A stretch of DNA of 64,000 nucleotides from a phage. How positions within the stretch are numbered: the stretch's first letter is position 1; every line of letters starts with the position of its first letter. Where the stretch lies: assembly GCA_014685065.1 (NCBI GenBank), contig GCA_014685065.1_4092.1; one strand, written 5' to 3'. Below the pieces are notes generated by a model that ran no database searches, was not told the DNA's origin, and saw only the letters and a list, made by a program, of their open reading frames with translations. The translations under genes were made by a program, and so were the position numbers. Shown one piece after another: positions 23,342-59,809 of the stretch.

Positions 23342-23369
23342 TAGACAAACCGTAAGAATGTGATATAAT
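23342..23369 (+). promoter_or_regulatory. sigma70-type early promoter (TAGACA, 16 nt, TGaTATAAT)
   Basis: Same architecture as 801-828; lies 40 nt upstream of the ClpA-like start codon. Confidence 0.55.
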
Positions 23370-23409
23370 GTTTATTAATTAGAGTGACGTGAATCACATA
23401 GGAGAATAC

Positions 23410-25698
23410 ATGAATCTTACTCAATTGTTCAAAAAAAGCGACGAACTGGCAACATCTCTAGGTCATACATTCTTGACTATTGACCACGTAAGTGCCACAG
23501 TACTGACTATTGATAGCATCAAGAACGTATTTGAAGATATGAACATTGATGCAGACAAACTGCACAACCGCCTGATGAACTATCTTAAAAATACAACAGT
23601 TCCACATGCACCAAAAAGTGTTAAAGATGAAGACGCGAATCGCACTTCACTTCTAGTGAATCGCGTTGTACATGAGCTTTCTAAAAAATCAGTTATTGAA
23701 CAACTAAAAAGTGATGATTTTTCGATTGATGCATATTTTGTTCTATTCGAATGTCTGTCTTTCCCTAACACAGCACTAGAAGCTGCGTTGAAAGAAGAAG
23801 GTGTTAGCTGTACTGAAGCTGCACGTGCATTGCAAAAACACGTTGAGTCACTTGATAAGGGTATCAACTTACAAAGTATTAATGACGAACCGATTGGAGA
23901 TAAAAAAGTGGCCCAACAGCAGCAATCATCTAAACAAAAAGGTTTGGAAGACTATACAACGAATCTAACTGCTCTTGCAAAAGAAGGCAAACTAGATCCT
24001 ATGATTGGTCGCCAGAAAGAATTGTCTGCATTGATTGAGACTCTTGCTCGCAAAACCAAAAAGAATGCTATTCTTACTGGTGAAGCTGGTGTAGGTAAAA
24101 CACAAATCATCGACGGTCTTGCACAAGCTATTGCTGACGGCAACGTACCTGAACACCTGAAAGACGTTGAAATTCTTTCACTAAATGTTGGTGCATTGAC
24201 TGCTGGTACTAAGTATCGTGGTGAGTTTGAAGAACGCATCGACAATTTGCTAAAAGAACTAAAGAAACGTGAAAATACTATTGTTTTCATTGATGAAATT
24301 CATATTATGGTTGGGGCTGGTTCCGCAAGTAATGGTTCTATGGACATGAGCAATATGCTTAAGCCAGCACTTTCACGTGGTGAGATTCGTGTAATTGGTG
24401 CAACAACATATGATGAATATCGTAAAAATATCGAGAAAGATAGTGCATTAACTCGTCGTTTTATGAAAATTGATGTAGTTGAGCCGTCAATTGATGAAAC
24501 TCGTGCAATTGTTAATGGTTTGAAACCAACTTATGAAAAATTCCATAATGTTGAGTTCACAACTGATGCAATGGATGCTGTAATTTCTCTCAGTGATAAA
24601 TTCCTGAAGAATAAGCACTTCCCAGATAAAGCAATTGATCTAATGGACGCTGCTGCTGCAAAAGTTCGTTCACGTGACAACAATAGTAAGCTTATTACTG
24701 CCAATTTGATTCAAGAAGTTGTTGCTGGTATTGCCAATTTGGATATCAACGTGGTTGCATGTACTGAAAGTGATCGTATGCGTAATCTACCAGATGCACT
24801 ACGCTCACGTGTATACGGTCAAGAGGAAGCTATTCAAAAATTAGTTGATAACGTGATGGTAGCTCGTGCAGGACTGCGTGACAAATCTAGTGTTCAGGGT
24901 GCATTTATGTTTGTTGGACCATCTGGTACTGGTAAAACAGAAATTACCAAAGCATTAGCAGATGCAACTGGTGCGGAACTGATTCGCTTTGATATGTCAG
25001 AATTTTCTCAAGAACATACTGTTTCTAAACTAATTGGTTCACCTCCAGGTTATGTTGGTCATGATTCTGGTAACGGTTTACTGTTGGATAAAATTGAGCA
25101 GTTCCCTAATGCAGTACTGTTACTTGATGAAATTGAAAAAGCAGATCGTAAAGTACTACTAACCTTCCTACAGGTTTTGGATGAAGGTCGCCTGACTGGT
25201 TCACAAGGTAAAACTGTATATTTTAATAACGTAACTGTTATTATGACTACAAACCTTGGTGCGGCAGATTCAACGAAGCGTAGCATTGGTATGAGCGGTA
25301 GTGATACTGCACAAGACAAGGCAATTAAAGCATTCTTGCCACCAGAGTTTATTAACCGTATTGATAGTATCGTTACGTTTAAAGACCTAAGCAGTGAAGC
25401 TATTGACAGCATCATTGATAAGTTCATGGGCAGTTTGAATGAACAAGTCAAAGACCGCAATGTTAAAGTTACATTGACAAAAGCTGCACGTGAATGGCTT
25501 GCGAAAAATGGGGTAAAAGTTGGCATGGGTGCACGTCCAATGAAACGTACCATTGAACAAAACATTCGTGTACCACTAGCTAAAGAAATGTTGTGTGGTT
25601 CACTTGTGAATGGTGGTAACATTACATTTGATGTTATTGATGGTAAAATCGGTATTAAACCGAAACGTACCAAAGCTGTAGATAAAGCACTGGCATAA
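23410..25698 (+). CDS. clpA: ClpA-like AAA+ unfoldase (two ATPase domains)
   Basis: Collinear with ClpA: D1 Walker A GEAGVGKT (24079-24102), Walker B FIDEIH; D2 Walker A GPSGTGKT (24916-24939), Walker [13 protein letters not shown]-track start is GTG 23389; ATG 23410 with AGGAG RBS preferred. Confidence 0.85.
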
Positions 25699-25706
25699 AA
25701 AAAGAA

Positions 25707-25735
25707 AAGGAGAGCAATATGCTCTCCTTTTTTAT
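25707..25735. terminator. bidirectional intrinsic terminator
   Basis: AAGGAGAGC-AATAT-GCTCTCCTT hairpin followed by TTTTTTATT; between convergent clpA-like and giant gene. Confidence 0.7.
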
Positions 25736-28700
25736 TACTTAACTAATAATATATTTTTAATATCATTACCACTAACTTGTAGACTATCAGTGTATACTGA
25801 AAGATCTATAGTGTAACTATTTTGTGTGTAACGTTTTAACATATCATAATTACCTAAATTAATTCCATTGAATGAATATGTAGTATTAAGTTTAAAATCA
25901 TGTTCTGCACTATACATTACTCCACGGAGTAAATTATTTGCATTTCTAACTTCAACTTTTTCATATCCAATCGATATAATATCATTCATGTTCGCGGCAG
26001 AACCGGATAAAACATTATTTCTAATACTATAAGGACTTATTGATTTAGGTTGAGAAACATAGGTTGTATTTTCTTCACTAATGGTTGTGATGTTAGTAAC
26101 CGTGCCACCAACAACACCGATGTACATACCGTCAACCATTGGATATCCATAAACCCATATACCTTCATTATTTCTAAACGGTTGAATAACACTTGAATCA
26201 TATTCAATAACGTTGATTTCTAAACTATCAGTCATTTTAGTTCTTGCTAATTCACTAAGAACTCCCGCACCAGTAATTGGTAGGTTATAACCGTTGTCGA
26301 TAGTAATTCCATCAACATCAAATATTTCGTTAGAGATTATCCAAACGTCAACGTCATCTGGTGTTATTCCGTCATTGTACTTACCACCATTTAAAGTAGT
26401 ATCGTAGAAAACATCATAATTAATTACATCAATTGTGTAATTTCTATTTTGTTCGTACAATTTGATACCATTCTTCACAAATTCTGGGTCAGCAAATGTT
26501 CTAACACGAACAATGTTCAATGCAAGAGGCTGTACTGGCTCATTTTGTTGTGCAAGAGTGATATTATCATAACGGAGAACTGCACCAGTACTCTCATCAA
26601 TCAATTCAATCGTTTCTTTACCTGTATTTCTTACAGTGAATAGGATCGGAGTTGTATTGTTTTTGATGTTAGATACACGCAAGATTGTTTCCCATGTGTG
26701 ATTTTGATATCTCACGAAATCTTCACCATCAGGAGTGAAAATCATCACCTTATCACCATCAGATAGGTCATTGTCAACTATTTCTGCTTCAGTTAAGCTA
26801 TTAATAGATCTCACACGATAGAAATATTTTTCATCAAACTTCGATGTTGTTTTATTAATATCATTTTCAATCTTAGCATATGAAGGAATACTAACAATTG
26901 CTTCTGTATGTTTATATGGATTGATAATTGCCATACCTTCAGTTTGATATCTGCTGTTATCACGTAATTGTACAAGAGATACATTGTCAAACCCATATCC
27001 ATCAACTGTAAATCTAATTTGACCAACATCACGCCCAGAAGGGTTTATGTCAGATATATCCACAATATAAGGATCAACCTCATCATCTTTAACTTCCCAT
27101 TTTATTGAAGAAGTTTGAGATTCTAATGCTAGGTTATCAAATGCATTCATATCATTGAAGTACTTAGCTTCAGTAATACTATCAAGTATATATTGATAAT
27201 CTGAATACATTGGGTTATTTTGATCTAGTGGTAAATCATCTAGATTTATTTCAGCTAGTTCAATCATTTCACCATTTGTGATAAAATAATCTTCCATGAA
27301 ATCATCAATACTTTGTTCATCAGGTATACTTTGATATACACCGTTAACATTTAAGTAAACATATTTTCGTGGAATCATTGTAATTGCATAGATATCAATT
27401 GGGGTTTTACTAAGAATCTCTTCAGCTTTTTCGTACTTATCAGTAGCGTCTTTGTCGAATAACCCTCTCATACCTGCTAATACGTGAATAGCATCAGTAT
27501 AGAAACGGGTATCACCACCGACTTCATCATAACGATAAACATATACACCATACTCAACTTCAAGTTTAACTTTTACTTCATAGTCTGATGCGTCAGGATT
27601 TTTATCTTTAATTAATGAAATATATTTTTGATACAGTTCACTGCTTATTTCAAAATATCCATAGTTATAATCATTACTAGAAGAAAAGCCTAATGGAAGT
27701 CTAGTACTAGGATTGTCATTATAAGTAAGTCCACTAAATCCACAACCAACTTCATCGTGAATTTTCTCATCACTTATATCTTTATAAAGTTTCAAACGGT
27801 TTGCCAATGTGTTATACTGAACATATTGTCTAAGGTCAGTAAACATATCGTTCTGCGTTGATTCTTTATAAACACGCTCCAATGTAGCAGTAAATTCATC
27901 TGTTGCTTCTAAATCTTCCGCATGGTCTTTATACCACTGGTTAACACCATATGCTGTTCCTAATGTTACATCCAATTCTGGATAGTAGATTTGCATTTGA
28001 TAAGCAATAAGAAGATCGAAAGTTTCTTCACTATATTCTGGGAAAGAATATATATAACGTTGTAATTCATAGTTACTAACAGCATCCTTTTCATTGGATT
28101 GATATTTGTTATTAACACTTACTAATTCATTTATGCTTGCCAAATCTGCATTTGGTTTACATTGAATGTTATCGTAATGCATAATAATATCAATTTCTTG
28201 GAATCTTCTATTTGGTGTAATGAAATCACTTGGTAGTGAACCTACCTGTTCCCATTTTTGGGTAATTTCATTAAATTGAGCGTACTCATAATCCCAAATA
28301 TCTTTTTCAGTTTTGACCCAAGAACCGTCAACGAAAATATATCCATTAGGATCTAAATCATTACACAGACCTTTTATTAAATCATCATCAGATGTCTTTT
28401 GCTCTATTTGTGAACGAATTTTAGTTCTATAAGGTTTAACTTCTTCAAAATATTCAACAATTTGATTAATCAAATTATCGTTTGAATAGTTTTGAACTAA
28501 TGATTGTTCCAAACCAACAATATAGATATATGATGTTTTAAATACCCAATCCACAACACTTTGTTCAACATGTACATATTTGACCATATCAAAAACAATT
28601 TCGCTTTGATGTAAATCGAAAGAATTTTTGAGTAAAGCTAGTGCTTTACGAACGTTGATTTCACGATTGCTTAGTGAACCATTATCATTATGAACACTAT

Positions 28701-31700
28701 AATCTGCGTAAAGCATATCATTGAGTTCAACTGTACTGTTTTCACGACCAATCGCTTTCCAATAAATTGAATCGCGTGATTGTGATTTAATATACAATGT
28801 CCAAATGTTTTCACTATCGGTAACTCTGATAATATCGCCAACTTGGTAGTTTTTAGTATTAGCATCTTCTAAGCTTGACTCTTGAGTATAAGTCGTGTTA
28901 CTATCATACCCAACATCATACCAATCAGCATATGACCAGTACTGAGTCATGTCCAATGAAGTTCCCAGTGATTCAACATAATCAGATTGTTTAATCATTT
29001 TATGTTGACCCTCACCTTTGTTCTCTAACGTTATAGTAACAACACTACCCGCGTTTGCTGGACTATTCATTAACTGAATATATCCATTTTCGTCGAAGTG
29101 AATAAAATAAACAGCACTAGAAGTTAATGGATTTGGTAGATATCCACTAGTACTTAAAATAACAGCGTCATTTTCTTTAAATTTATCACTTTCAACTGCA
29201 ATAACTAATTCATTATTGTAAGACAATACACGGAAAGAAACTTCATTCGGATTAACTTCAGTGGTTTTAACATTAAACACATCTTCCATAACAACACTAT
29301 TAGTGGTTATGTTTTGTGACCTATAATAATTATTAGCACTTTCTACAAAGTTTCTACGAGCTTCTATAACATTTTGGAACCAAGTTTTGTTTGAACCTAA
29401 ACCGTTATCAACATCTGGATATAATAAATTAATCACAGAACCTGATTCAGTTGTTTCTTGACCAATTAGTGAGTTCCACATTGAATCCCAAATTAGTGGG
29501 TTAAAGTTATAGCTGTCACCTTCTTTACATAGTTGATACTGGTCATGTTTAACAACTTCAGTACTATCCATATAATAAGAAACAGTTAAAATACTGGTAT
29601 CATCATTCACTTTAAATTGCATATTACTAAGAATAAACGAGTTTTCATTGATTGGAGCGAACCAAGGAATGTTTAGCTGTGTTGGATCTTTAATAATACG
29701 AGCAATGTCAGTACATGATTTTGTTCTGGTATGTAGTGGTGGTACATAAATTGTATCACGTACCCAGAAATAGTATTTTGTCACATAACTATCAGTTGAA
29801 CTATCATATTCCAAAAATGTACTATAATTATCTTCAAGTGCAGTTCCACTTGGTAGATACATAGTATTATTTTTGTTTTTCTTAGCAACATCTTTACAGT
29901 ATTTGTCCCAGTTATATGGCTCAACTGGTGAACAAACCCACTCTAACACATCAATTGTACTATGTGGTAATAAACGACCCCAGTTGTAACGTTTGTATTC
30001 ATTGGTTGCATCAATGTCAACATTACCGTCTGCGTCATAAATTGCACGAGTATAATCCAAATAAAATGCAGTGCTAGTGTTCCACCATACTTGACCAACT
30101 TTATCAGCACCCCAAGCCTGGATTAACTCTCCATTACTATTATACTGTGCAGGATCAACTGGTGAAGTATATGTTACGTTTTGCATAGCCGCACCTGGAA
30201 TAACACCATTAATTGGGTCATAAACGTTTAGATATAGCTCAGTAATGTTAGTACGTTCATCATATGTCGTTGGACGATCAAATAAAGTACTTTGTGGTGC
30301 TTTAAAACTATATTTCTTGTCAATGTAAGCTTGACGTTCATCAGTACTGGCAAAACGTGATACATAACGATACAAACGTGGACGTGTATCTGGATCAGTA
30401 AATTCAATATCAATAGAAGTATCAAATGGAACTACCATAACTTTAGGATCAGAACCAGCAGTATAATATTGACTTTCTACTGTTAAAGTATCTGGCATAA
30501 AGTTAGTTTCATCAACAAAATAATAATAATCACCATCTTCAAGTGGTACATTATCAGTTAAAGTTACTTTACAAAATTGTTCAGCATACACATCGGTATT
30601 TTCAATAGGTGTTATAGAAACCATTTGCACATTAGTATCAACCAATTCAAAAATGTTCCACAAACCATTACCGTCTTTAAACATCCACACAGATTCAGGA
30701 TTTTCACCTTTACCATTAGTATAAGTTATGCGGTCATTATATGCAGTACTGAAATCTTTTGTTGTGTACGATACTTCATCCAATGTTACTGGACCAATAT
30801 CTGGAAGTTGGATATTTTCACTTCTTCCACTACGCATTGGGAATGAGAACTTACCATTTGGACGTGTAATCCAACGAGGATCTTTACCCTGCTCACCGAA
30901 GTATACAATATGATTACCATTACCATTTGAAGTTGCATTTACATCAAAAGAAACCATTTGAGGTTGTTGTTTAAATTGGTCATTGATTAGTTTAAATTGA
31001 AGGTTTTTCTTACCATCAATATTACCATATGTACCAATTTTAAATGCCCATTCTTGTAATGCTTTATATTCATCAGTGTCATATGATTTAGAAACACGAA
31101 GTACACGTTCTAAAACTTGGTTAGTACCTTTATCGTGAATGAATCCTTTATAGAAATCAACACGACTAACATCACTACTAATCATACGCTGTAGATAATC
31201 ACGAGATTGATAACCAATCAAATGGTTTGACAACTCTTGTAATTGTACATCACTTACTGGAGTTTCACTATCATAATAATGTTGGAAATCCGACACTAAT
31301 TTTTCAAATGATGGTAGTGTTCCAGCTTCCAAGATAATAAATCCAGGAGCTTGTAGGCGACCAGTCCATGAACCAGTAATATATCCATACATTTTAATTA
31401 GTTCTTGAATAGAACCATATGTTGGCTGATAAATGTAATCACCAAAAATAGTTTTATCATCAAAAATAACAGCATGTTCATATGAACACAAACTTAAACG
31501 AATCAATGCAATGCGTTTATTAGATTCTAAAGTTCTAACAGTGAAGATATTTCCAATACGAGAAGTTTCAATTTCATATTGGCGAATACCTTGGTTATTA
31601 TCATCAAGTAATGACCATACACCACCATTATTTTGCGTAATAGATTGTACTGAACCAAAGTCTGCCCCAAATTTAGCGTTTGCAGCACTTGGGGTACAAG

Positions 31701-34700
31701 AAATAAATTCACCAGTTACTAGAGAATTCTGACTCCAGATCACGAAATCTTTAGCAATAGTGTTCCAATCTTGTTGAGCACCACTATCATTTACATCTTC
31801 AAAAATCCAACCATGTTCTTTAAGATATTCACCATATCCACAAATAAAAGTATAAACTTCTTGGTAACTATTGAAAACTTTACCATATTCAATTGAAGCT
31901 TCAGACTTCCATTCATTATAATGAACAACATTACGGTTTTCCAATTTAAGAGTTACTTTTCTACCATTTTTTACGGGAAGTTTATATTTAAATTTAGCAC
32001 CAACTAGATCATATCCATCAATCTGATATGCACTACCATTCCAAGTAATTTTGATCGCACTCATTTGCTCATCACGGATATTATTAGAACGAACAAGACC
32101 AATGGTTTGGTTTTCTTGTGAAATAAGACCGAAAGATTTAGCATTGAATGTTAGCTGATCTGCTTTAGTAAATCCTCCAATTTTATGACCAACATTTATA
32201 TAAGAAGAACGAACTACATCCCCATACTTGGTGGTAATATTTTTATTTTGATACATCAAATGGTCACTTACAAACATTTGATAACCAATTGTTCTTGTGC
32301 TATTTTCACCATGAACTACTGTATTTTTATCAAAATTAATACGCTTACGTGTATCACCATAAAGGAATTGTGAACCATCAGTGAATACTTCTTTTAAGTT
32401 ATCATTGCGGGTATCCCAGAAATAGTTAGCAAATTGTGCTGGTTTAGCTTTATACAAAAGCATCATTTGGTCATATGCAAACAATGTAGTGTTCATGTAT
32501 GTAAATTCCATGTCACCCATATCACCATATGTCCAAGGTTCTGCTCTATGATTTAAAGATCCAGACACTAAACCTAAAATTTCAGGTGCAATATATTCAA
32601 CCACACAAATATCAATACCAGAAGATGTTTTATTTCCAGTTTTTGTAATTTTGAATGGCTGTACACCAAATCTTTTATATTTGTCATATTGACCACGACG
32701 ATCACCAAATAAAATAGTTCCAGTACTGCTATCGCCAATAGTTCCGTCAATATCCCAAAGACCACTAGGAACTAAATCACCTTGCTCATTCATAACAAGT
32801 GCTTCATATACATATACAACATCACTATCACGTTCACCAACTTGAACAGCCGTTGGTTCGTATTCTTGGTTCCACCAAGTTGGACGTTGTGTAAAGCCAA
32901 ACATTTCCCACGGATGGGTAGCTGGGCGATATGTACCATATTGGTCAGTGTAAATGGCACGCCATGAACCACGTGCAGGAATTTCAGTACTTTGACCATT
33001 AACTACATAATAAGTGCCAGTATAGTTCCAAGTTCTCCAATTGTTAGGATCATAATCATGTGTACTATTACTGATACCATTAGTTGCGGTGAAGTTAATG
33101 TATCCACGTAGTAATAATGTTTGTTTCTCTTCAGCACTATATTCAGTTTTAGTGAAATATGGTGTAGGGAAAAGGTCATCACTATTCAATACTGGTACGT
33201 AATCAACATCTTTGAATTTATTATCAATACTATTAAAAATTCTATTTTCTAATTCATATACAACATCATCCATTTTATCAACACCATTGATAACACGGTA
33301 TGCTTTGGAAATAATACCAGTATGACTGATGTTATAACAGCTTGGTTTACTACCAGCAGTGAGGAATGTCGCTTTTTCTGGTACATATGCTTGAAGAATA
33401 CCTAAGAACTGTGGTGTTGGTGGTATAAATGCACGAATGAATCCAGAAGTACTTCCAACATTATCATAATAGAATGGGAATGAACTATCACGTCCCATAT
33501 TAATAGTAGTTAAAATTGCATCAACAATGTTTGCAGCACTATTTTGTAAAAAGTCTGATGGATTTTCATCATACATACGAAGCATTTGTGTATTAAATTT
33601 ATTAATGAATCTAAAATATTCAGATTGCATAAACATAGTTGCTTCAAATAAATCAATATCTTCATTTGCAGTATGTGCCATCAATGGAAGCATAGATGCT
33701 TCATTTTGGATAATTTTAGTACCTACGCCATTATTAACCAATCCTTTAGCCAAACGTTCTTCATAGTCATTGAAATCATCAGAAGAACCACGTGTAATGT
33801 TCTTTTGAATAATATCCTGAAAATGTAAAGTGTAGTCACCTTGGTTAATGTATATAATATTGGAATTGTATGGGTTATTTTGTAAGTTAATTGGAACTTC
33901 ATATGCACCTAATTCTTTATTAGGAGTTACAGTACTGCTATAAGTTCTAATTTGAATAACTGAATCTTCATCCAAATCTACAGTGCTATCTAAGGTGATA
34001 CTTTGAACTTGACCTTTTGATACATTTTTGGTATATTTTGATACATCAACACCATCAACAACAACTTCAATTATGTCAGAATCATTATCTAAAACTTTTT
34101 GTGCTAATTCGAATGTGTGGTCATATTTTACAATCTGAACACCATCACCAGTGATTGGATGCCAGTCTAGATAAGTTTCGCGGTCTGCTTTATAGTACTG
34201 ATAGGTTCTATCAACTTCAATAACATATGCATACATACCATCAACTGGTTCTTTAAAAACTTCCATATCATAAACAGTACTGAATACACGATACATATCA
34301 GTACGTTTGACTTGTGGAGTTTGTTTTACAAATTGTTTAGAGTACTCTTCTGAACGAACCCAATCGGTTTGAAGATTCATTTCATTATTTTCATCAATAA
34401 TGTTATAATAGTATAAACCATCAATTTCAACTTCTTTTCCAAGATGGTCATAGGTATAACGTTGGGATTGTAAAAAGTTTTCATAAATGTAATAATTATA
34501 ATCACCAAGTTCAATGTTATATCCATATACACTATCAGTTGCATAGTTGTAATTTATTTTAAAACCAAACAACTCTGAACCTTTAAAGTTACTTGATGGA
34601 TATGTAGTACTGTTGTCAAGTTTGATACCATTACGATCATAAAGTTGGAATTTAGGGAATACGTTAACACTAGTTTTTGATTGTGCACGAACCCACAAAG

Positions 34701-35706
34701 AACCATTCCAGTACATAGAACTATTACCATACTCATTACCTTTAGTGATTAGAACAACATCACCATCTTGAGGTTCACCACTTGGGCGTGATTCGGTTTC
34801 TTCTTCTGGATCTAGTGCTAAACCATAAACACGAGTACCATCTTGCATTTTTTTCACATATACATTATAAATTCTATTGTTTTCACCATTGTTACCAATA
34901 CTGGTGAATAGAATACGCATTCCATCTTGCGGAATAATACCATCAATACGTATACCACTATTAATATCTTTTTGAACGATATCTTCAGGTTTAATAATAT
35001 CAGAGAACAGATCAACAGTTCCACGGAATTTTGTACCGTAGTTAATTAGCTCAATATTTTTATTATATTCAATAATTGGTGCACGTGCACGAATAAAACG
35101 TGAATCTTGCATTAATTCTTCAGTTAATATTGAGCCATCTTCTAATGTTTCACCTAAAGTATACCAAAAGTTTTGTAGTGACCATGTATTACCATTAAGT
35201 GCTCCACGTTCCATTACAATGTAATCAGGTGAAGTAATATTATAAGAGTTTTTAGTATCCCAAAGATATGAGCTAAAATTGTTCATTTTATTTGGGTTAA
35301 TAGCTGGAGTCCATGCATAAAACTTACCGTTGAACAAACGGCTTTCATTATCGGTTAGTGCTCCATAATGATTCATGTATCCAACTAGATCATCATAAAA
35401 TTGAATTGAACGAATTGTCGAATCATCATTTTTTGAGACGTAAGCAGTGGACAACTGATAAAGTTGACGTGCTACAGTACTTTCATGTAAGAAGATATTA
35501 CCAGCAGCGGCAGGAGAACCCATATCACCAATATAGCCGTCAACTAATTCGTTTTCAGCCGGATTAAACCATTGTTGAATAACATCATCACTGACTTTTT
35601 GAATATCTTCTAAGCCTTGCATCCACTCAGGCAATCTTTTAATAAAAAGCTTCTTCTGTACTGCTTCAGCCATCTGTGTAGGTTGAAACTTAAAATTATT
35701 AGTCAT
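25735..35706 (-). CDS. giant virion protein (~3323 aa), probably baseplate/fibre-associated
   Basis: Uninterrupted ORF on the ORF track (25735-35736); start set at the second ATG because GGAG lies 8 nt upstream; sits downstream of the gp25-like and 1153-aa genes. Confidence 0.55.
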   Translation of the reverse strand: MTNNFKFQPTQMAEAVQKKLFIKRLPEWMQGLEDIQKVSDDVIQQWFNPAENELVDGYIGDMGSPAAAGNIFLHESTVARQLYQLSTAYVSKNDDSTIRSIQFYDDLVGYMNHYGALTDNESRLFNGKFYAWTPAINPNKMNNFSSYLWDTKNSYNITSPDYIVMERGALNGNTWSLQNFWYTLGETLEDGSILTEELMQDSRFIRARAPIIEYNKNIELINYGTKFRGTVDLFSDIIKPEDIVQKDINSGIRIDGIIPQDGMRILFTSIGNNGENNRIYNVYVKKMQDGTRVYGLALDPEEETESRPSGEPQDGDVVLITKGNEYGNSSMYWNGSLWVRAQSKTSVNVFPKFQLYDRNGIKLDNSTTYPSSNFKGSELFGFKINYNYATDSVYGYNIELGDYNYYIYENFLQSQRYTYDHLGKEVEIDGLYYYNIIDENNEMNLQTDWVRSEEYSKQFVKQTPQVKRTDMYRVFSTVYDMEVFKEPVDGMYAYVIEVDRTYQYYKADRETYLDWHPITGDGVQIVKYDHTFELAQKVLDNDSDIIEVVVDGVDVSKYTKNVSKGQVQSITLDSTVDLDEDSVIQIRTYSSTVTPNKELGAYEVPINLQNNPYNSNIIYINQGDYTLHFQDIIQKNITRGSSDDFNDYEERLAKGLVNNGVGTKIIQNEASMLPLMAHTANEDIDLFEATMFMQSEYFRFINKFNTQMLRMYDENPSDFLQNSAANIVDAILTTINMGRDSSFPFYYDNVGSTSGFIRAFIPPTPQFLGILQAYVPEKATFLTAGSKPSCYNISHTGIISKAYRVINGVDKMDDVVYELENRIFNSIDNKFKDVDYVPVLNSDDLFPTPYFTKTEYSAEEKQTLLLRGYINFTATNGISNSTHDYDPNNWRTWNYTGTYYVVNGQSTEIPARGSWRAIYTDQYGTYRPATHPWEMFGFTQRPTWWNQEYEPTAVQVGERDSDVVYVYEALVMNEQGDLVPSGLWDIDGTIGDSSTGTILFGDRRGQYDKYKRFGVQPFKITKTGNKTSSGIDICVVEYIAPEILGLVSGSLNHRAEPWTYGDMGDMEFTYMNTTLFAYDQMMLLYKAKPAQFANYFWDTRNDNLKEVFTDGSQFLYGDTRKRINFDKNTVVHGENSTRTIGYQMFVSDHLMYQNKNITTKYGDVVRSSYINVGHKIGGFTKADQLTFNAKSFGLISQENQTIGLVRSNNIRDEQMSAIKITWNGSAYQIDGYDLVGAKFKYKLPVKNGRKVTLKLENRNVVHYNEWKSEASIEYGKVFNSYQEVYTFICGYGEYLKEHGWIFEDVNDSGAQQDWNTIAKDFVIWSQNSLVTGEFISCTPSAANAKFGADFGSVQSITQNNGGVWSLLDDNNQGIRQYEIETSRIGNIFTVRTLESNKRIALIRLSLCSYEHAVIFDDKTIFGDYIYQPTYGSIQELIKMYGYITGSWTGRLQAPGFIILEAGTLPSFEKLVSDFQHYYDSETPVSDVQLQELSNHLIGYQSRDYLQRMISSDVSRVDFYKGFIHDKGTNQVLERVLRVSKSYDTDEYKALQEWAFKIGTYGNIDGKKNLQFKLINDQFKQQPQMVSFDVNATSNGNGNHIVYFGEQGKDPRWITRPNGKFSFPMRSGRSENIQLPDIGPVTLDEVSYTTKDFSTAYNDRITYTNGKGENPESVWMFKDGNGLWNIFELVDTNVQMVSITPIENTDVYAEQFCKVTLTDNVPLEDGDYYYFVDETNFMPDTLTVESQYYTAGSDPKVMVVPFDTSIDIEFTDPDTRPRLYRYVSRFASTDERQAYIDKKYSFKAPQSTLFDRPTTYDERTNITELYLNVYDPINGVIPGAAMQNVTYTSPVDPAQYNSNGELIQAWGADKVGQVWWNTSTAFYLDYTRAIYDADGNVDIDATNEYKRYNWGRLLPHSTIDVLEWVCSPVEPYNWDKYCKDVAKKNKNNTMYLPSGTALEDNYSTFLEYDSSTDSYVTKYYFWVRDTIYVPPLHTRTKSCTDIARIIKDPTQLNIPWFAPINENSFILSNMQFKVNDDTSILTVSYYMDSTEVVKHDQYQLCKEGDSYNFNPLIWDSMWNSLIGQETTESGSVINLLYPDVDNGLGSNKTWFQNVIEARRNFVESANNYYRSQNITTNSVVMEDVFNVKTTEVNPNEVSFRVLSYNNELVIAVESDKFKENDAVILSTSGYLPNPLTSSAVYFIHFDENGYIQLMNSPANAGSVVTITLENKGEGQHKMIKQSDYVESLGTSLDMTQYWSYADWYDVGYDSNTTYTQESSLEDANTKNYQVGDIIRVTDSENIWTLYIKSQSRDSIYWKAIGRENSTVELNDMLYADYSVHNDNGSLSNREINVRKALALLKNSFDLHQSEIVFDMVKYVHVEQSVVDWVFKTSYIYIVGLEQSLVQNYSNDNLINQIVEYFEEVKPYRTKIRSQIEQKTSDDDLIKGLCNDLDPNGYIFVDGSWVKTEKDIWDYEYAQFNEITQKWEQVGSLPSDFITPNRRFQEIDIIMHYDNIQCKPNADLASINELVSVNNKYQSNEKDAVSNYELQRYIYSFPEYSEETFDLLIAYQMQIYYPELDVTLGTAYGVNQWYKDHAEDLEATDEFTATLERVYKESTQNDMFTDLRQYVQYNTLANRLKLYKDISDEKIHDEVGCGFSGLTYNDNPSTRLPLGFSSSNDYNYGYFEISSELYQKYISLIKDKNPDASDYEVKVKLEVEYGVYVYRYDEVGGDTRFYTDAIHVLAGMRGLFDKDATDKYEKAEEILSKTPIDIYAITMIPRKYVYLNVNGVYQSIPDEQSIDDFMEDYFITNGEMIELAEINLDDLPLDQNNPMYSDYQYILDSITEAKYFNDMNAFDNLALESQTSSIKWEVKDDEVDPYIVDISDINPSGRDVGQIRFTVDGYGFDNVSLVQLRDNSRYQTEGMAIINPYKHTEAIVSIPSYAKIENDINKTTSKFDEKYFYRVRSINSLTEAEIVDNDLSDGDKVMIFTPDGEDFVRYQNHTWETILRVSNIKNNTTPILFTVRNTGKETIELIDESTGAVLRYDNITLAQQNEPVQPLALNIVRVRTFADPEFVKNGIKLYEQNRNYTIDVINYDVFYDTTLNGGKYNDGITPDDVDVWIISNEIFDVDGITIDNGYNLPITGAGVLSELARTKMTDSLEINVIEYDSSVIQPFRNNEGIWVYGYPMVDGMYIGVVGGTVTNITTISEENTTYVSQPKSISPYSIRNNVLSGSAANMNDIISIGYEKVEVRNANNLLRGVMYSAEHDFKLNTTYSFNGINLGNYDMLKRYTQNSYTIDLSVYTDSLQVSGNDIKNILLVK

Positions 35707-35754
35707 TTTTGGACTCCATATAATTCGTTCATTCATTTGATTTATTTATGATAT

Positions 35755-39247: not shown

Positions 39248-39312
39248 AATTTATTCCTTTAAATCAGTAAAGTACTAGTTCAGTACTGGGAATTATATAT
39301 AGAAATATTTAT

Positions 39313-39346
39313 TCAAAAAGAAAAGCACTCCGAAGAGTGCTTTTAT
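39313..39346. terminator. intrinsic terminator
   Basis: AAGCACTC-CGAA-GAGTGCTT hairpin with A/T runs on both sides. Confidence 0.55.
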
Positions 39347-39348
39347 AA

Positions 39349-46314: not shown

Positions 46315-46342
46315 GGGACAAAATGCTTTTTGGTGCTATAAT
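46315..46342 (+). promoter_or_regulatory. sigma70-type early promoter (GGGACA, 16 nt, TGcTATAAT)
   Basis: Same architecture as 801-828; followed by perfect palindrome GGTACAA-gga-TTGTACC (46352-46368) and the gp55-like gene. Confidence 0.5.
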
Positions 46343-46399: not shown

Positions 46400-47239
46400 A
46401 TGACAAATAGGCCAAAGCGTAAAAAGTATCTCAATAATGCTGATTTACTTCGTGAAATACAAAAAAGTAAGATTTCATACTGCTGGTTATTAGACAAATC
46501 ATATAGTATGTATGATTATATTGTTTTTCATGAGTCAGAAATTACTGCTGAGTTACTTGAAAAAGCCAAAGCAGCACGAATCAAACGACTAAACAATGAA
46601 ATGCTTGATAGTATTCGTGAAAAGGAAAGTATGAGTGCTAAAAAAGCTAAAGAATATGCAGATGAAAATAATTTAGTTATCACTGATGTTCCAATCGATG
46701 AAGTTGTTATTCGTGTTATCACTGATGAACATATTCCACCCGACACTAGAGTTAACTTTGAACCATTCAAGCATTACATTGTAGATAATGAAGGAATTCT
46801 CTATGAAGTATGTCGTTCTCATTGGAAAGGAGATCTTGAAACTGGTGAATTCAGTACTGTTCATGGTAAAATTACAAATGAACTAGGGAAGATGTTCATT
46901 AAACTTGCTGAGGAAATCTCTCATAAATCTAATTACAGAAACTATACATACTTAGATGAAATGATGGGTGATGCAAGAATACAATTAGTTAAAAACGCAC
47001 TTCTCTTTAAAGAGAGCATTCTTTATAAAAAAGATAAACCAGCAGTTCAGCTAAATCCTTTCTCTTACTATACATCATTCGTAAACAATAGTTTTCGTTC
47101 TATATTGAATAGTGAGAAAAATGTTCGAAATATACGTGATGATTTACTTGAAATGCATGGCTTTACGCCATCACATACACGTCAAATTGAGATTGAATTG
47201 AACATGATTGAAAGGAAAAATGAAGATGGCTCTGTTTGA
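46400..47239 (+). CDS. late-transcription sigma factor, gp55-like
   Basis: N-terminal KKYLNNADLLREIQ resembles T4 gp55 (recalled from memory) with further collinear segments; sits next to gp47/gp46 as in T4. Confidence 0.55.
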   Translation: MTNRPKRKKYLNNADLLREIQKSKISYCWLLDKSYSMYDYIVFHESEITAELLEKAKAARIKRLNNEMLDSIREKESMSAKKAKEYADENNLVITDVPIDEVVIRVITDEHIPPDTRVNFEPFKHYIVDNEGILYEVCRSHWKGDLETGEFSTVHGKITNELGKMFIKLAEEISHKSNYRNYTYLDEMMGDARIQLVKNALLFKESILYKKDKPAVQLNPFSYYTSFVNNSFRSILNSEKNVRNIRDDLLEMHGFTPSHTRQIEIELNMIERKNEDGSV

Positions 47240-50983: not shown

Positions 50984-51931
50984 ATGGCTAAAATGACACA
51001 ACAACAATTTATAGATAAATCAATTAATCTACATGGTAGTATTTACACCTACAATAACACCGTGTATGTTAATGCACATCAACCAGTGTCTATTACATGT
51101 AAAATTCATGGTGACTTTACGGTAGTTCCTAATAAACATATTTCCGCAAAGCAAGGTTGTCCGGTTTGTTCTGATATTGCAAAGAAAGAACGTAAATCTA
51201 AAAAGTCACTGGAGTCATTCTTTACTGAAGCAAAAGAAGTACACGGTGATAAGTATGATTACTCTAAAGTGTTTTTCAACATTCGTTCAGAGAAAATTAC
51301 TATCATATGCAAAGAAGAAGGTCATGGTGAATTTAATCAGGTAGTTAGTAATCACCTAGCTGGACAGGGTTGCCCTGAATGCTCCAAAGCACTTATTGGT
51401 TTAAAGAAAAGAACACCAGAAGATGTATTCTTTGAAGATTGTAAGTACATTCATATGGATGCATACGACTACTCCAATACAAAATATAATGGTATGTATG
51501 AAACAATTACACCAGTATGCAAACGTCATGGAGAATTCACAGTACTGGCAACTAAACATTATCATAGAAAGCAAGGTTGTCCGGTTTGTTCTGACATGGA
51601 ACTAAAGTCAAGACCAGTTATTGAAATTCAGAATTTTTTAAAAGAGTATGATATAATATTTGAAATGGAAAAGAAGTTTGATGGTTGTAAAAATATAAAC
51701 CATTTACCATTTGATTTTTATATTCCTTCACTGAATCTTCTAATAGAGTATGATGGTATTCAACACTTCAAACCAATAGAGTACTTTGGTGGTAAACAAG
51801 CTTTAGCTGAACAGCAAAGAAATGATGAAATAAAAAATCAATTCTGTTTTAATAACAACATTACTCTTCTTAGAATAAAGTATTTCGAAGATCATATTAA
51901 AATCATCAAAGACTATATATCAAAACTTTAA
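50984..51931 (+). CDS. free-standing nuclease: three Cys/His repeat units plus C-terminal DUF559/Vsr-like PD-(D/E)XK domain (putative homing endonuclease)
   Basis: Three ~45-aa repeats (YxYS...C..HGxF......H....QGCPxCS) then LPFDFYIPSLNLLIEYDGIQHF...LLRIKYFE. ORF-track start is GTG 50969; ATG 50984 with GAGGT RBS preferred. Confidence 0.55.
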   Translation: MAKMTQQQFIDKSINLHGSIYTYNNTVYVNAHQPVSITCKIHGDFTVVPNKHISAKQGCPVCSDIAKKERKSKKSLESFFTEAKEVHGDKYDYSKVFFNIRSEKITIICKEEGHGEFNQVVSNHLAGQGCPECSKALIGLKKRTPEDVFFEDCKYIHMDAYDYSNTKYNGMYETITPVCKRHGEFTVLATKHYHRKQGCPVCSDMELKSRPVIEIQNFLKEYDIIFEMEKKFDGCKNINHLPFDFYIPSLNLLIEYDGIQHFKPIEYFGGKQALAEQQRNDEIKNQFCFNNNITLLRIKYFEDHIKIIKDYISKL

Positions 51932-52038: not shown

Positions 52039-52066
52039 GAGACAACTTTAAAGTTTGTGCTATAAT
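52039..52066 (+). promoter_or_regulatory. sigma70-type early promoter (GAGACA, 16 nt, TGcTATAAT) with no protein gene downstream
   Basis: Same architecture as the promoters at 801, 23342 and 46315. Confidence 0.5.
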
Positions 52067-52072
52067 GTTTGT

Positions 52073-52526
52073 TGTAGTAATGACAATCCTGTTGAATGCA
52101 GAAATGCATATAAATTAGAACCTGATCCTATCGAAAATGTAGATGGCAGATGAGCAGTTCAACAGTGCGATGAGCAAAAGAAACCCGTTAGATGTGGGCA
52201 TAGTTTGAACCCCTCACGGCAATGCGGCTCAATAAAGAACTCCGATAAGCATACAGAGAGTTCCTCGATAGACATATAAGGATCGCACCTTACCAGATTT
52301 GCTAAGGGAGTTTATTAAGTGATTTTAATAAACAGCCTGAAGTTTGATTGTATAGACTTTCAGGTGAGTGTCAGGATGATTAAGACTGACGACCGTTGCA
52401 CATGACTGCGATAGAGAGAAACAGAGCAACCCGCTTTCGTTCTTAATATATTTTTAAGAAATTCGCAATACAATAAATGCTGAAACCATCAGCGTCAAGA
52501 AATAGAGACTTCATTGTCTCTTTTTT
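52073..52526 (+). ncRNA. candidate structured noncoding RNA (~450 nt), identity unknown
   Basis: Bounded by the promoter above and an intrinsic terminator (stem 52504-52521 plus T-run); no ORF of 60 aa or more; GC-rich hairpins. Confidence 0.3.
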
Positions 52527-52740
52527 ATTGTCTTCATTCCCCTGCGGGGGGATGAAAATGTCCTCAACAAATCCCGTCAAGTATTAAATCTTTTAAAGTT
52601 CTTTATAATTAATTTAATTAAATGAATATGAGTTACGTAGTAACGAATATTCTTCAGCTAACGAATGAAATGAGTTAGATGAATCCAATAATATTAAAAT
52701 TAATCCTTTCATAATTCAATTCAAATAATTCTGTAGTTTA

Positions 52741-59185: not shown

Positions 59186-59809
59186 ATGAGTAGTATGATT
59201 CGTGAATGGTCTTCATTCAATGATTCTAAAGTTGTTTTGGAACATCGTGATAATGGATTTGGTGGGCGTGACTGCTATCTTCGTGGTATTGCTATTCAAG
59301 CCGACCAACGAAATTTGAACGAGAGAATTTACCCTTTATCTGAAATTACAAGGGCAGTAAATAACATGAACCAGCGTTTAGCTAAAGGTGAAAGCATTCT
59401 TGTTGAATGTGACCATCCAGAAACACTAACTATTAACCTAGACCGTGTAGCAGCAATGATTACTAAGGTTTGGATGGAAGGTGCTAATGGTATGGCAGAA
59501 ATCAAACTACTTGATACTGCACATGGTCAGAATATCCGTAAAATGCTAGAGGCTGGTGTAAAACTTGGTGTAAGTTCTCGCGGTTCCGGTAACGTTGATT
59601 ATAATGGAATAGTTTCTGATTTTGAAATTATCACTATTGATATTGTTGCTCAACCTAGTGCTCCAGAAGCATACCCAACAGCGGTATTTGAATCTCTGAT
59701 GAGTAAGTACGGATCACCTTGTAATAGTTCTAAAAAAATCACTGAATCTAAAAAAGTAAATAATTTAGATTCTGAAATATACGATTTTTTCAAGAAATTA
59801 AAAGGTTAA
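59186..59809 (+). CDS. prohead core protease (T4 gp21-like)
   Basis: Collinear with gp21-family pattern N.RIYP...CDHPE...AMITKVWMEG...GVKLGVSSRGSG...DFE...D.V.QPS.PEAY (T4 gp21 recalled from memory). Confidence 0.6.
   Translation: MSSMIREWSSFNDSKVVLEHRDNGFGGRDCYLRGIAIQADQRNLNERIYPLSEITRAVNNMNQRLAKGESILVECDHPETLTINLDRVAAMITKVWMEGANGMAEIKLLDTAHGQNIRKMLEAGVKLGVSSRGSGNVDYNGIVSDFEIITIDIVAQPSAPEAYPTAVFESLMSKYGSPCNSSKKITESKKVNNLDSEIYDFFKKLKG

Follow-up and report, generated by a model that had tools for sequence, protein, structure and literature searches.

A ClpA-type unfoldase gene in the late structural region of an Escherichia coli jumbo phage, and its possible partnership with phage ClpP and ClpS-like proteins

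The window analyzed here, a stretch of 64,000 nt that shares 99% identity with Escherichia phage 121Q (Asteriusvirus), carries a clpA-like gene on its plus strand. In the open reading frame listing of the window, the ORF at this locus starts at a GTG and runs from 23389 to 25698 (+); translation of clpA probably begins at an in-frame ATG, position 23410, which yields 762 aa, the length of the annotated 121Q gp581 (2289 nt). The gene, the motifs of its product, and the elements that border it are as follows.

23342-23369, plus strand: sigma-70-type promoter with extended -10, TAGACA-N16-TATAAT (11/12 matches plus TGn)
23400-23404, plus strand: ribosome-binding site AGGAG, 5 nt before the ATG
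23410-25698, plus strand: clpA-like coding sequence, 762 aa plus stop (orthologs 121Q gp581, RaK2 ORF069, and phAPEC6 gp246c)
23410-23859, plus strand: N-domain, aa 1-150, eight helices, divergent double Clp_N repeat (Pfam, AF2 model)
23941-24729, plus strand: D1 AAA+ module, motifs invariant in 23 homologs
24079-24102, plus strand: D1 Walker A, GEAGVGKT
24211-24222, plus strand: D1 pore loop, KYRG
24280-24303, plus strand: D1 Walker B, IVFIDEIH
24454-24459, plus strand: D1 Arg fingers, RR
24772-25659, plus strand: D2 AAA+ module
24916-24939, plus strand: D2 Walker A, GPSGTGKT
25048-25059, plus strand: D2 pore loop, GYVG
25117-25143, plus strand: D2 Walker B
25282-25296, plus strand: tip of the ClpP-docking loop, S-I-G-M-S, aa 625-629 (aligned with E. 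coli ClpA)
25348-25365, plus strand: D2 Arg finger, inside FINRID
25528-25542, plus strand: D2 sensor 2, GARPM
25705-25731, both strands: bidirectional intrinsic terminator, 12-bp hairpin with T-runs on each side
25735-35736, minus strand: gene for a 3333-aa virion protein, convergent with clpA, common terminator

The original prediction had given this gene a promoter of its own and a bidirectional terminator within a block of structural genes on the opposite strand, and the analysis bears it out on each count. The promoter lies at exactly 23342-23369, its spacer ending in TGA (last 3 bases). The terminator, with T-runs on both strands, separates two convergent genes, the stop codon of clpA being at 25698 and that of the 3333-aa gene at 25735. 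On either side of clpA the genes are on the minus strand and belong to the tail and baseplate, its neighbors encoding a tail sheath stabilizer, virion proteins, and a baseplate wedge. The promoter class GACA-N13-TGNTATAAT is represented by four copies in the window versus 0.03 expected, a count reached in 0 of 100 shuffles of the window. No promoters of the sigma-70 type precede the flanking structural genes, which carry T4 late-type (T)ATAAATA motifs. The T4 late promoter TATAAATA is not enriched in the window (5 copies versus 10.9 expected), and each of the five is placed shortly before a gene start, which lends soft support. PA5oct, a related phage, relies on host RNA polymerase (PMC7318152). 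To judge by the promoter motifs, clpA is probably expressed early.

By its sequence, the ORF is a genuine, intact ClpA-type protein unfoldase of a 121Q/PBECO4-group E. coli jumbo phage. A profile search of the protein finds the Pfam domains AAA (D1), AAA_lid_9, AAA_2 (D2), ClpB_D2-small, and Clp_N, and Pfam, TIGR02639, and the alignment agree with the prediction of a ClpA-type Clp/Hsp100 ATPase that has two rings and both Walker pairs intact. The top NCBIfam model is ClpA TIGR02639 (755.6 bits, E 5e-227), and its alignment covers residues 9-747, N-domain included. The scores do, however, miss the NCBIfam equivalog cutoffs (755.6 versus 993.15 for TIGR02639 and 656.2 versus 1350 for PRK11034), and with ClpA still the top model the protein is thus a divergent ClpA-like protein rather than an NCBI equivalog. 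The N-domain and the ClpP-docking loop, the two places at which the original prediction had proposed to look, are both present. For Clp_N the score of 21.7 bits, on the first repeat only, exceeds the cutoff of 20.7; in the AF2 model the N-domain helices span aa 3-148, with a disordered linker at aa 150-176 (pLDDT < 50).

Among PDB sequences E. coli ClpA matches best, in a single stretch (E 6e-181) that spans residues 24-748 as numbered on the 769-aa GTG-start reading; the two proteins are 44% identical over 732 aa. In this alignment both Walker A/B pairs are intact, as are both pore loops, the Arg fingers, and sensor 2; the catalytic and translocation motifs are, moreover, invariant in 23 homologs of 93% to 39% identity, indicating purifying selection on an active motor. 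The AF2 monomer model (pLDDT 78.8) has no long inserted helices, and its TM-score to ClpA in ClpAP complexes (7uiz_F) is 0.87 normalized to the target, with 48% identity. ClpB/Hsp104 and ClpC likewise have two AAA+ rings and Clp_N, and they give matches of about 500 bits. However, the alignment to E. coli ClpA is contiguous and that to ClpB, ClpC, or Hsp104 falls into two stretches, which indicates that the phage protein has no coiled-coil M-domain. Because it lacks this domain and possesses a ClpP-docking loop, it is not a ClpB-type disaggregase; sequence and model together place it as ClpA-type, neither ClpB nor ClpC.

The gene is already known: GenBank and RefSeq annotate it as ClpA-like in dozens of public genomes, and clpA of Rak2-like jumbo phages has been mentioned as conserved (PMC6102473, PMC7824862). 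The protein is 99.3-99.6% identical to 21 Asteriusvirus records, 75% to RaK2, and 62% to GAP32, and it matches PHROG phrog_4871 (“ATP-dependent protease”) with 1036 bits over its full length. The same gene, with the same neighbors and orientation, is found as 121Q gp581, RaK2 ORF069, and phAPEC6 gp246c, nothing material differing; near clpA, the window phage and 121Q differ only in the presence or absence of a homing endonuclease. Like the phage protein, E. coli ClpA (PDB 1KSF/1R6B, 6W1Z, 7UIV) consists of an N-domain, D1, and D2 without an M-domain, has its docking loop at the same place in D2, and is accompanied by ClpP and ClpS-domain partner genes in the same genome. The phage protein differs from it in a much more divergent N-domain and in its docking tripeptide, IGM versus IGL. 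The Agrobacterium jumbo phage Atu_ph07 also encodes a ClpA (gp292), a ClpP (gp676), and a ClpS (gp708) (PMC6102473), its ClpA being 38.5% identical to the one studied here and located near tail-fiber genes. Its Clp set is, however, larger than that of Asteriusvirus: it counts seven family members, ClpX and ClpB among them, and its clpA directly follows a DnaJ gene, whereas no J-protein gene adjoins the Asteriusvirus clpA.

Elsewhere in the window, at 52074-52530, lies a structured RNA of about 450 nt that is unannotated, conserved, and multicopy, with strong covariation. It matches no Rfam family, and a four-sequence alignment found no conserved block in common between it and PA5oct ncRNA002. 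This RNA may be a more original lead in the window than clpA.

The original prediction had described the unfoldase as stand-alone, with no ClpP-like peptidase or adaptor in view. Within the 64,000-nt window this holds, as E. coli ClpP and ClpS queries found nothing there (tblastn, best E > 5). At the level of the genome, however, “stand-alone” fails, because the 99%-identical reference genome 121Q, in which the partner genes were established outside the window, encodes both a ClpP homolog, gp464, and a ClpS-domain protein, gp48. The former (Pfam CLP_protease PF00574, 141 bits) lies ~83 kb from clpA and is 35-37% identical to E. coli ClpP. The Ser-His-Asp triad S97/H122/D171 is intact in all six phage ClpPs examined, and the phage ClpP has a conserved C-terminal extension of roughly 20 aa. 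The gp464 gene has its own terminator and a promoter of the same class as clpA, TGGACA-16-gTGaTATAAT. Since the window itself encodes a separate T4 gp21-type prohead protease (Peptidase_S77, 59186-59809), the ClpP homolog is not needed for head maturation. Other 121Q candidates were set aside: as a ClpP partner, gp473 scores below the Pfam threshold (16.7 versus 20.2 bits) and has a signal peptide-like N terminus, and the HslV-like gp475 has no Pfam match; gp465 and gp466, just downstream of clpP, are not ClpS-like by Pfam.

The ClpS-domain protein gp48 (181 aa, with extensions) scores 24.7 bits with Pfam ClpS PF02617, for which the cutoff is 23. E. coli ClpS as a tblastn query misses the Asteriusvirus gene, which was reached only with the GAP32 ClpS-like protein as an intermediate query. 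It forms a pair with an IF3-like gene, and the pair has a sigma-70 consensus promoter (12/12). In E. coli ClpS the canonical N-degron pocket is formed by N34, D35, D36, and H66, with M40 as the gate. Relative to this pocket, gp48 keeps E79 and carries P in place of D36, N in place of H66, and A in place of M40. The loss of these key residues argues against a canonical N-degron adaptor, and gp48 is probably an adaptor-like protein and not an N-degron reader.

Unlike E. coli, which has a clpS–clpA operon, the phage has its three Clp genes scattered over the genome (one each at ~34, 214, and 298 kb). ClpA, ClpP, and ClpS-like queries match the same sets of phage records across the Rak2-like jumbo phages (33-34 records for Escherichia, 10-11 for Klebsiella, 8-10 for Salmonella, and 8 for Erwinia as host genus). 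The ClpA/ClpP/ClpS-like identities run roughly in parallel, at 75%/70%/43% for RaK2-like phages (ClpP and ClpS taken from RaK2-type Klebsiella phages, e.g., Muenster/K64-1) and 62%/71%/39% for GAP32.

How far the phage proteins might fit one another can be considered at the docking loop. At the D2 position homologous to IGL (617-619) in E. coli ClpA, the phage protein has IGM, and not the IGL or IGF that might have been looked for, so that a tip of two hydrophobic residues around a Gly is retained. The ClpP-docking consensus attributed to Kim et al. 2001 is said to be [LIV]-G-[FL], and the third docking residue, M, falls outside this canonical F/L set. The homolog alignment shows the tripeptide to vary across the clade (IGM, LGM, LGL, IGV, IGA, LGH, VGF, MNM, MSM), MNM and MSM having lost the Gly. 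Residues 624-630 have low pLDDT in the AF2 model, as expected of a flexible loop. On the ClpP side, 14 IGL-loop-contacting residues of E. coli ClpP have been listed (bioRxiv 10.1101/820209), of which only two are identical and 12 differ in gp464. In six phages, the tripeptide showed no clean covariation with single residues of the pocket, and the drift of the tripeptide could reflect relaxed constraint on ClpP docking rather than coevolution. Together, the IGM tip and the 12 altered pocket residues make a private ClpA–ClpP docking interface in the phage possible. Compared with E. coli ClpAPS, then, the phage set has a ClpP with a remodeled docking pocket and a C-terminal extension, and a ClpS-like protein with an altered pocket.

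Collectively, these data lead us to favor, with some reservation, a model in which the product of the ORF is the hexameric AAA+ unfoldase component of a ClpAP(S)-type protease that the phage itself encodes. Host sigma-70 RNA polymerase would transcribe clpA as a monocistronic unit, from 23342-23369 to 25705-25731, independently of the surrounding late tail and baseplate genes and probably before them. Using ATP in both rings, the hexamer would thread substrates through the KYRG and GYVG pore loops, and its D2 docking loop (IGM) would pass them to a ClpP tetradecamer, most likely that of phage gp464, with gp48 acting as a putative specificity factor on the ClpA N-domain. Candidate substrates are host proteins or short-lived phage proteins. 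From the sequences, we infer that the phage ClpA pairs physically with the phage ClpP and ClpS-like partners and that the output is proteolytic rather than purely that of a chaperone. Against this model count the off-consensus and drifting docking tripeptide, the changed ClpP pocket, the dispersal of the genes, the altered gp48 pocket, the missed NCBIfam cutoff, and the detection of the CBB ClpP homolog in virions, by one peptide (PMC5259590). The literature searched reports no experiment on any phage ClpA, and searches for the phrases “phage-encoded ClpP” and “phage-encoded ClpA” returned no papers.

One alternative, which the original prediction had raised as the remodeling of virion proteins and which we now consider an unlikely minority reading, is that the protein serves as a ClpP-independent chaperone or unfoldase in virion assembly. 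It would remodel or disassemble tail or baseplate components, such as the 3333-aa neighbor, much as E. coli ClpA has ClpP-independent chaperone activity on RepA. The position of the gene in the tail/baseplate block (with the NUDIX gene, the sheath stabilizer, and the giant-protein genes) is kept in RaK2, GAP32, and the distant Vibrio phage 2.275.O, clpA lies near tail-fiber genes in Paride and Atu_ph07, and a J-domain or DnaJ protein is encoded immediately upstream of it in both. However, gene order in collinear genomes may be mere inheritance. The 2236-aa protein downstream of clpA in Paride is, moreover, not homologous to the 3333-aa protein (BLASTP E > 1), so that the link between ClpA and a giant neighbor is positional at best. 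Some relatives have a degenerate docking tripeptide (MNM, MSM, IGA), and Iyer et al. propose a translocase or virion-assembly role (PMC7824862), but in the phage studied here the docking loop keeps its length and its hydrophobic character. An assembly role would also leave the co-conserved ClpP and ClpS-like genes unexplained, and it sits poorly with a clpA that, in contrast to the late genes around it, is read from the other strand and from a sigma-70-type promoter of its own. In addition, in the 99.5%-identical phAPEC6, for which 62 virion proteins are listed, the ClpA ortholog gp246c is missing from the list, although its neighbors gp245 and gp248 are present (PMC7247149).

Another alternative, the redirection of a host ClpP, also dates from the original prediction. 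In it, E. coli ClpP would be the main docking partner of the phage ClpA, which would compete with host ClpA and ClpX and so redirect host proteolysis. With ClpP and ClpS-like genes in the phage genome this is no longer the most economical reading, and we judge it improbable. The change from IGL to IGM is a conservative one, the D2 base is very similar to that of host ClpA at 44% overall identity, and mixed complexes are compatible with the data. However, this identity is no higher than that to distant bacterial ClpAs (39-47%) and thus gives no sign of host adaptation or of recent capture from the host. Phages of closely related enterobacteria, whose ClpP proteins are nearly identical, differ in the tripeptide, which speaks against its being tuned to the host pocket, and the phage has its own ClpP, catalytically intact by its triad, with a matching promoter. 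Finally, that clpA is an acquired gene in decay or without function, a moron with no role, finds nothing specific in its favor beyond the subthreshold NCBIfam score and the divergent N-domain, and is effectively refuted by the conservation pattern, with all catalytic residues invariant in homologs from 93% to 39% identity, the gene kept in every Rak2-like genus examined, and the promoter, ribosome-binding site, and terminator intact.

Returning to the favored ClpAP(S)-type protease, a more specific and distinctly tentative proposal is that the Rak2-like jumbo phages carry an orthogonal, early ClpAPS protease. The xGM tip, along with the remodeled pocket and C-terminal extension of ClpP, would form a private interface insulated from host ClpA, ClpX, and ClpP. 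The divergent ClpS-like protein, having lost N-degron reading, would deliver to the protease either specific host proteins, such as those of defense or the stress response, or early phage proteins that are short-lived. In any event, a clade of enterobacterial jumbo phages, some of which are considered for therapy, brings a ClpA/ClpP/ClpS-like set into its hosts. If the phage protease is orthogonal to that of the host, then it would represent a natural case of a virus importing private regulated proteolysis, and it could supply orthogonal degradation parts for synthetic biology.

The window comes from an Asteriusvirus, and so from the 121Q/PBECO4 group of jumbo myoviruses that infect Escherichia coli: over 10 kb around clpA, its DNA is 99.0% identical to that of Escherichia phage 121Q and 98–99% identical to about 20 other records. 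The clpA reading frame in a six-frame ORF list is 23389–25698 (plus strand), with a GTG start; because AGGAG lies 5 bases before an in-frame ATG at 23410, and because that start gives a 2289-nt CDS matching the annotation of 121Q gp581 ("ClpA-like"), the gene is taken as 23410–25698, encoding 762 aa. The finding of a phage ClpA is real and already known: the gene is the same as 121Q gp581 and RaK2 ORF069, many records annotate it as ClpA or ATP-dependent Clp protease, its product has its own PHROG (phrog_4871, a 1036-bit match), and Iyer et al. count ClpA/ClpX, ClpP, and ClpS as adaptations of jumbo phages (PMC7824862). No functional study of a phage ClpA was found in the literature searched.

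The domains assigned to the product by Pfam are Clp_N, the N-domain that was sought, followed by AAA (D1), AAA_lid_9, AAA_2 (D2), and ClpB_D2-small. The top NCBIfam model is ClpA TIGR02639 (755.6 bits over residues 9–747, below the equivalog cutoff of 993), and BLASTP gives 44% identity over 732 residues to MG1655 ClpA. The closest PDB sequence is E. coli ClpA, aligned in a single contiguous stretch (E 6e-181); ClpB, ClpC, and Hsp104 each match in two stretches, and the product therefore lacks an M-domain. An AlphaFold2 model built from an alignment of 23 homologues (mean pLDDT 78.8) contains an N-domain of eight helices, a disordered linker (residues 150–176), a pair of AAA+ modules, and a loop that is flexible at residues 624–630. 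Foldseek superposes the model on ClpA as it stands in ClpAP complexes (target-normalised TM-score 0.87, 48% identity). As the original prediction held, both ATPase sites are intact: the D1 motifs with the RR Arg fingers, and the D2 motifs with the Arg of FINRID and sensor-2 GARPM, align with the matching E. coli residues, and the D1 and D2 motifs are essentially invariant among 23 homologues spanning 93% to 39% identity.

That prediction had also been staked on the ClpP-docking loop, and the combined loss of this loop and of both ATPase sites is not what is found. The loop equivalent to I617-G618-L619 of E. coli ClpA is S-I-G-M-S (aa 625–629, nt 25282–25296), with IGM at its tip. Phages of the clade vary this tripeptide to an unusual degree: IGM occurs in 5 of the 20 phage-type sequences sampled, other tips are LGM, MGM, VGM, LGL, IGV (RaK2), IGA, and LGH, XaC1 and two further homologues have VGF, and the SE_PL group has MNM and MSM, which lack the glycine. 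E. coli and the four most distant homologues aligned (39–45% identity; of cellular or phage origin) carry IGF, MGF, IGY, or IGL. The canonical docking rule, reportedly set out by Kim et al. in 2001, is [LIV]-G-[FL]; in the alignment the loop is retained, with a tip that departs from this rule.

The unfoldase had been described as standing alone. This holds within the window, where tblastn with E. coli ClpP and ClpS found no match, as expected from the predicted lack of a ClpP-like peptidase or adaptor there; at the level of the genome the description is wrong, since a search for clpP and clpS found a clpP and a ClpS-like gene in 121Q. The peptidase and adaptor genes concerned are:

121Q 214,364–215,059: gp464, ClpP (PF00574, 141 bits; 35–37% identity to E. 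coli ClpP)
121Q, directly downstream of an IF3-like gene: gp48, ClpS-domain protein, 181 aa (PF02617, 24.7 bits against a cutoff of 23)
Window 59186–59809: T4 gp21-type prohead protease (Peptidase_S77), a separate gene

By these measures gp464 is a strong ClpP homologue. Catalytic Ser97, His122, and Asp171 are kept in all six phage ClpPs aligned, and the phage proteins carry a conserved C-terminal extension (ending ...VKRRGGVEEWV in 121Q, with variants in other phages). The RefSeq label of gp464, "head maturation protease," probably stems from the way the family is named, because the gp21-type prohead protease is a separate gene. Of 14 residues at which E. coli ClpP is reported to contact the IGL loop (bioRxiv 10.1101/820209), gp464 retains only Y62 and M92; its pocket changes include Y60 to T, F82 to S, L114 to G, R192 to P, and A52 to S, the remaining positions being conservative changes. 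The xGM tip and the remodelled pocket are compatible with a private ClpA–ClpP interface, although the drifting tripeptide could equally reflect relaxed constraint on docking.

The ClpS-domain gene was missed with the E. coli ClpS query and recovered using the GAP32 ClpS-like protein. In E. coli ClpS, D36, H66, and M40 belong to the N-degron pocket; the gp48 core keeps E79 and replaces D36 with P, H66 with N, and M40 with A, and gp48 is unlikely to be a reader of classical N-degrons. The identity of the three parts and their co-distribution are direct observations: clpA, clpP, and the ClpS-like gene match the same phage records (Escherichia 33–34, Klebsiella 10–11, Salmonella 8–10, and Erwinia 8), and also co-occur in phages of Yersinia, Serratia, Cronobacter, Pectobacterium, and Xanthomonas. 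The surroundings of the partner genes hold further features. In 121Q 33,944–35,623 (L015 2445–4124 in local numbering), gp47 is an IF3-like translation initiation factor (Pfam IF3_N and IF3_C), with which gp48 is apparently co-transcribed from a perfect sigma-70 consensus promoter (TTGACA-17-TATAAT); a KTSC-domain protein is next, and the IF3–ClpS order recurs in GAP32. Besides gp464, 121Q 214,364–219,952 (L005 14364–19952) encodes two further annotated peptidases, gp473, a second, very divergent "ClpP-like" protein with a signal-peptide-like N-terminus (Pfam 16.7 bits, below cutoff), and gp475, an HslV-like peptidase with no HslU seen nearby; gp457, a 75-aa DnaJ zinc-finger-like protein, lies 5 kb upstream.

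The promoter and terminator predicted for clpA were both recovered, the promoter at exactly the predicted position. The transcription features of the window are:

23342–23369, plus strand: promoter-like site before clpA (TAGACA, 16 nt, TATAAT, TGn extended -10; 11/12), also a GACA-N13-TGNTATAAT site
Before the gene at 848: GACA-N13-TGNTATAAT site
46317–46342, plus strand: GACA-N13-TGNTATAAT site before 46400–47239, a late-transcription sigma factor by 121Q annotation
52041–52066, plus strand: GACA-N13-TGNTATAAT site, the fourth of the clpA class, opening an ORF-free stretch
25705–25731, both strands: terminator hairpin with T-runs on either side, between the stops of clpA and the convergent 3333-aa gene
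52074–52530, plus strand: structured RNA candidate, predicted transcript about 450 nt
52504–52521, plus strand: intrinsic terminator at the end of the ORF-free stretch

The clpA promoter is a member of a genuine class: the window has 4 copies of GACA-N13-TGNTATAAT where 0.03 would be expected, and none of 100 shuffles reaches 4. The clpP promoter (TGGACA-16-gTGaTATAAT, 35 nt before the ATG) is of the same class, and clpP has its own terminator. A site before a sigma-factor gene is consistent with promoters of early or middle type that the host polymerase reads; in the 46400–47239 protein no domain was found by Pfam at E ≤ 0.001. The structural genes around clpA have no sigma-70-like site of at least 10/12 and carry (T)ATAAATA-type motifs just 5' of their starts. 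Together, the promoter class, these late-type motifs, and the shared hairpin suggest that host RNA polymerase would transcribe clpA as a separate unit, at a different time from the surrounding late genes. The related phage PA5oct is rifampicin-sensitive and thus dependent on the host polymerase (PMC7318152).

The RNA at 52074–52530 is a candidate for a new family of structured RNA, apparently genuine and so far undescribed, and merits its own study. It matched no Rfam 15 family at any gathering threshold, and at E up to 1 gave two far-sub-threshold minus-strand matches and none on the plus strand; PA5oct ncRNA002 has no evident similarity to it. Among Rak2-like phages that infect Erwinia, Yersinia, Cronobacter, and Xanthomonas, its nucleotide identity is 67–78%. 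A genome holds 4–5 copies (71 records with 291 places in all), and they are nearly always left without annotation. The orthologous copy adjoins an EndoVII gene in 4 of 4 enterobacterial phages examined (SE_PL, pEa_SNUABM_12, GAP32, and fHe-Yen9-04) and has a different neighbour in XaC1. An alignment of seven copies, including a 121Q paralogue at 247,457–248,001 (L005 47457–48001) with a promoter of the same class, yields 15 consensus helices with 82 pairs, 35 of which show compensatory changes; 97.5% of cells are paired versus 37–45% in slid controls, and the covariation score of 0.438, versus 0.05–0.08 in controls, was reached by 0 of 500 shuffles. After the terminator (window 52530–52580) a conserved short element, CTTCATTCCCCTGCGGGGGGATG, shared by several genera and the 121Q paralogue, folds as a GC-rich hairpin (alignment columns about 655–690).

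The predicted placement of clpA on the opposite strand inside structural genes is borne out by PHROGs and 121Q annotation. One flank carries a NUDIX hydrolase (non-structural), a sheath stabiliser of gp15 type, and a virion protein of 497 aa; the other carries the 3333-aa virion protein and a baseplate wedge resembling gp6. The same arrangement, with clpA again on the opposite strand, is seen in RaK2, in GAP32, and in Vibrio phage 2.275.O, a distant phage with a ClpA of 46% identity. In Paride (PA5oct-like) and Atu_ph07, unlike the window, clpA points the same way as the genes around it, follows a gene for a J-domain or DnaJ protein, and is near tail-fibre genes. The phAPEC6 orthologue, gp246c (99.5% identical), is missing from a table of 62 virion proteins that includes gp245 and gp248 (PMC7247149); clpA is therefore a non-structural gene in a structural block. 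The 3333-aa protein itself (25735–35736, minus strand; phrog_10938, with no other family assignment) is convergent with clpA across the common terminator; its counterpart gp245 was detected in phAPEC6 virions at 382 kDa with 17 peptides (PMC7247149).

Endonuclease genes vary in the region. Window 39248–39348 lacks a ~740-bp insertion that in 121Q (L001 38250–39090) carries the HNH endonuclease gene gp584, intergenic between the gp6-like baseplate wedge gene and a gp25-like gene, with about 20 nt of the wedge gene start repeated at both ends; the site is a homing-endonuclease presence/absence polymorphism. The paralogous genes 50984–51931 and 62405–63502 (both plus strand) contain repeats of a CPxCS treble-clef zinc-finger motif (DUF723/DUF4379) and resemble free-standing endonucleases; 121Q lacks the first at the matching position, and the second, with an 11/12 sigma-70-like promoter, is the counterpart of gp604 ("endonuclease").

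The simplest reading, which we consider reasonably probable, is a phage-encoded ClpAP(S) protease in which gp581 would be the ATP-driven unfoldase, its three parts each expressed from host-type promoters. ClpA, ClpP, and the ClpS-like protein would assemble with each other, expression would be early, and the output would be degradation, not remodelling. An assembly chaperone acting independently of ClpP is unlikely, and so is a ClpA working mainly with host ClpP. These readings and the ClpAP(S) protease are not fully exclusive, because E. coli ClpA itself has both ClpP-linked and ClpP-independent activity. A functionless gene, given such ATPase motifs, is highly improbable. To the known gene this analysis adds a docking tripeptide that is non-canonical and drifting, a remodelled ClpP pocket with a C-terminal extension, an altered pocket in the ClpS-like protein, the absence of ClpA from the published virion proteome, and a single promoter class for clpA and clpP, the ClpS-like operon having a separate consensus sigma-70 promoter.
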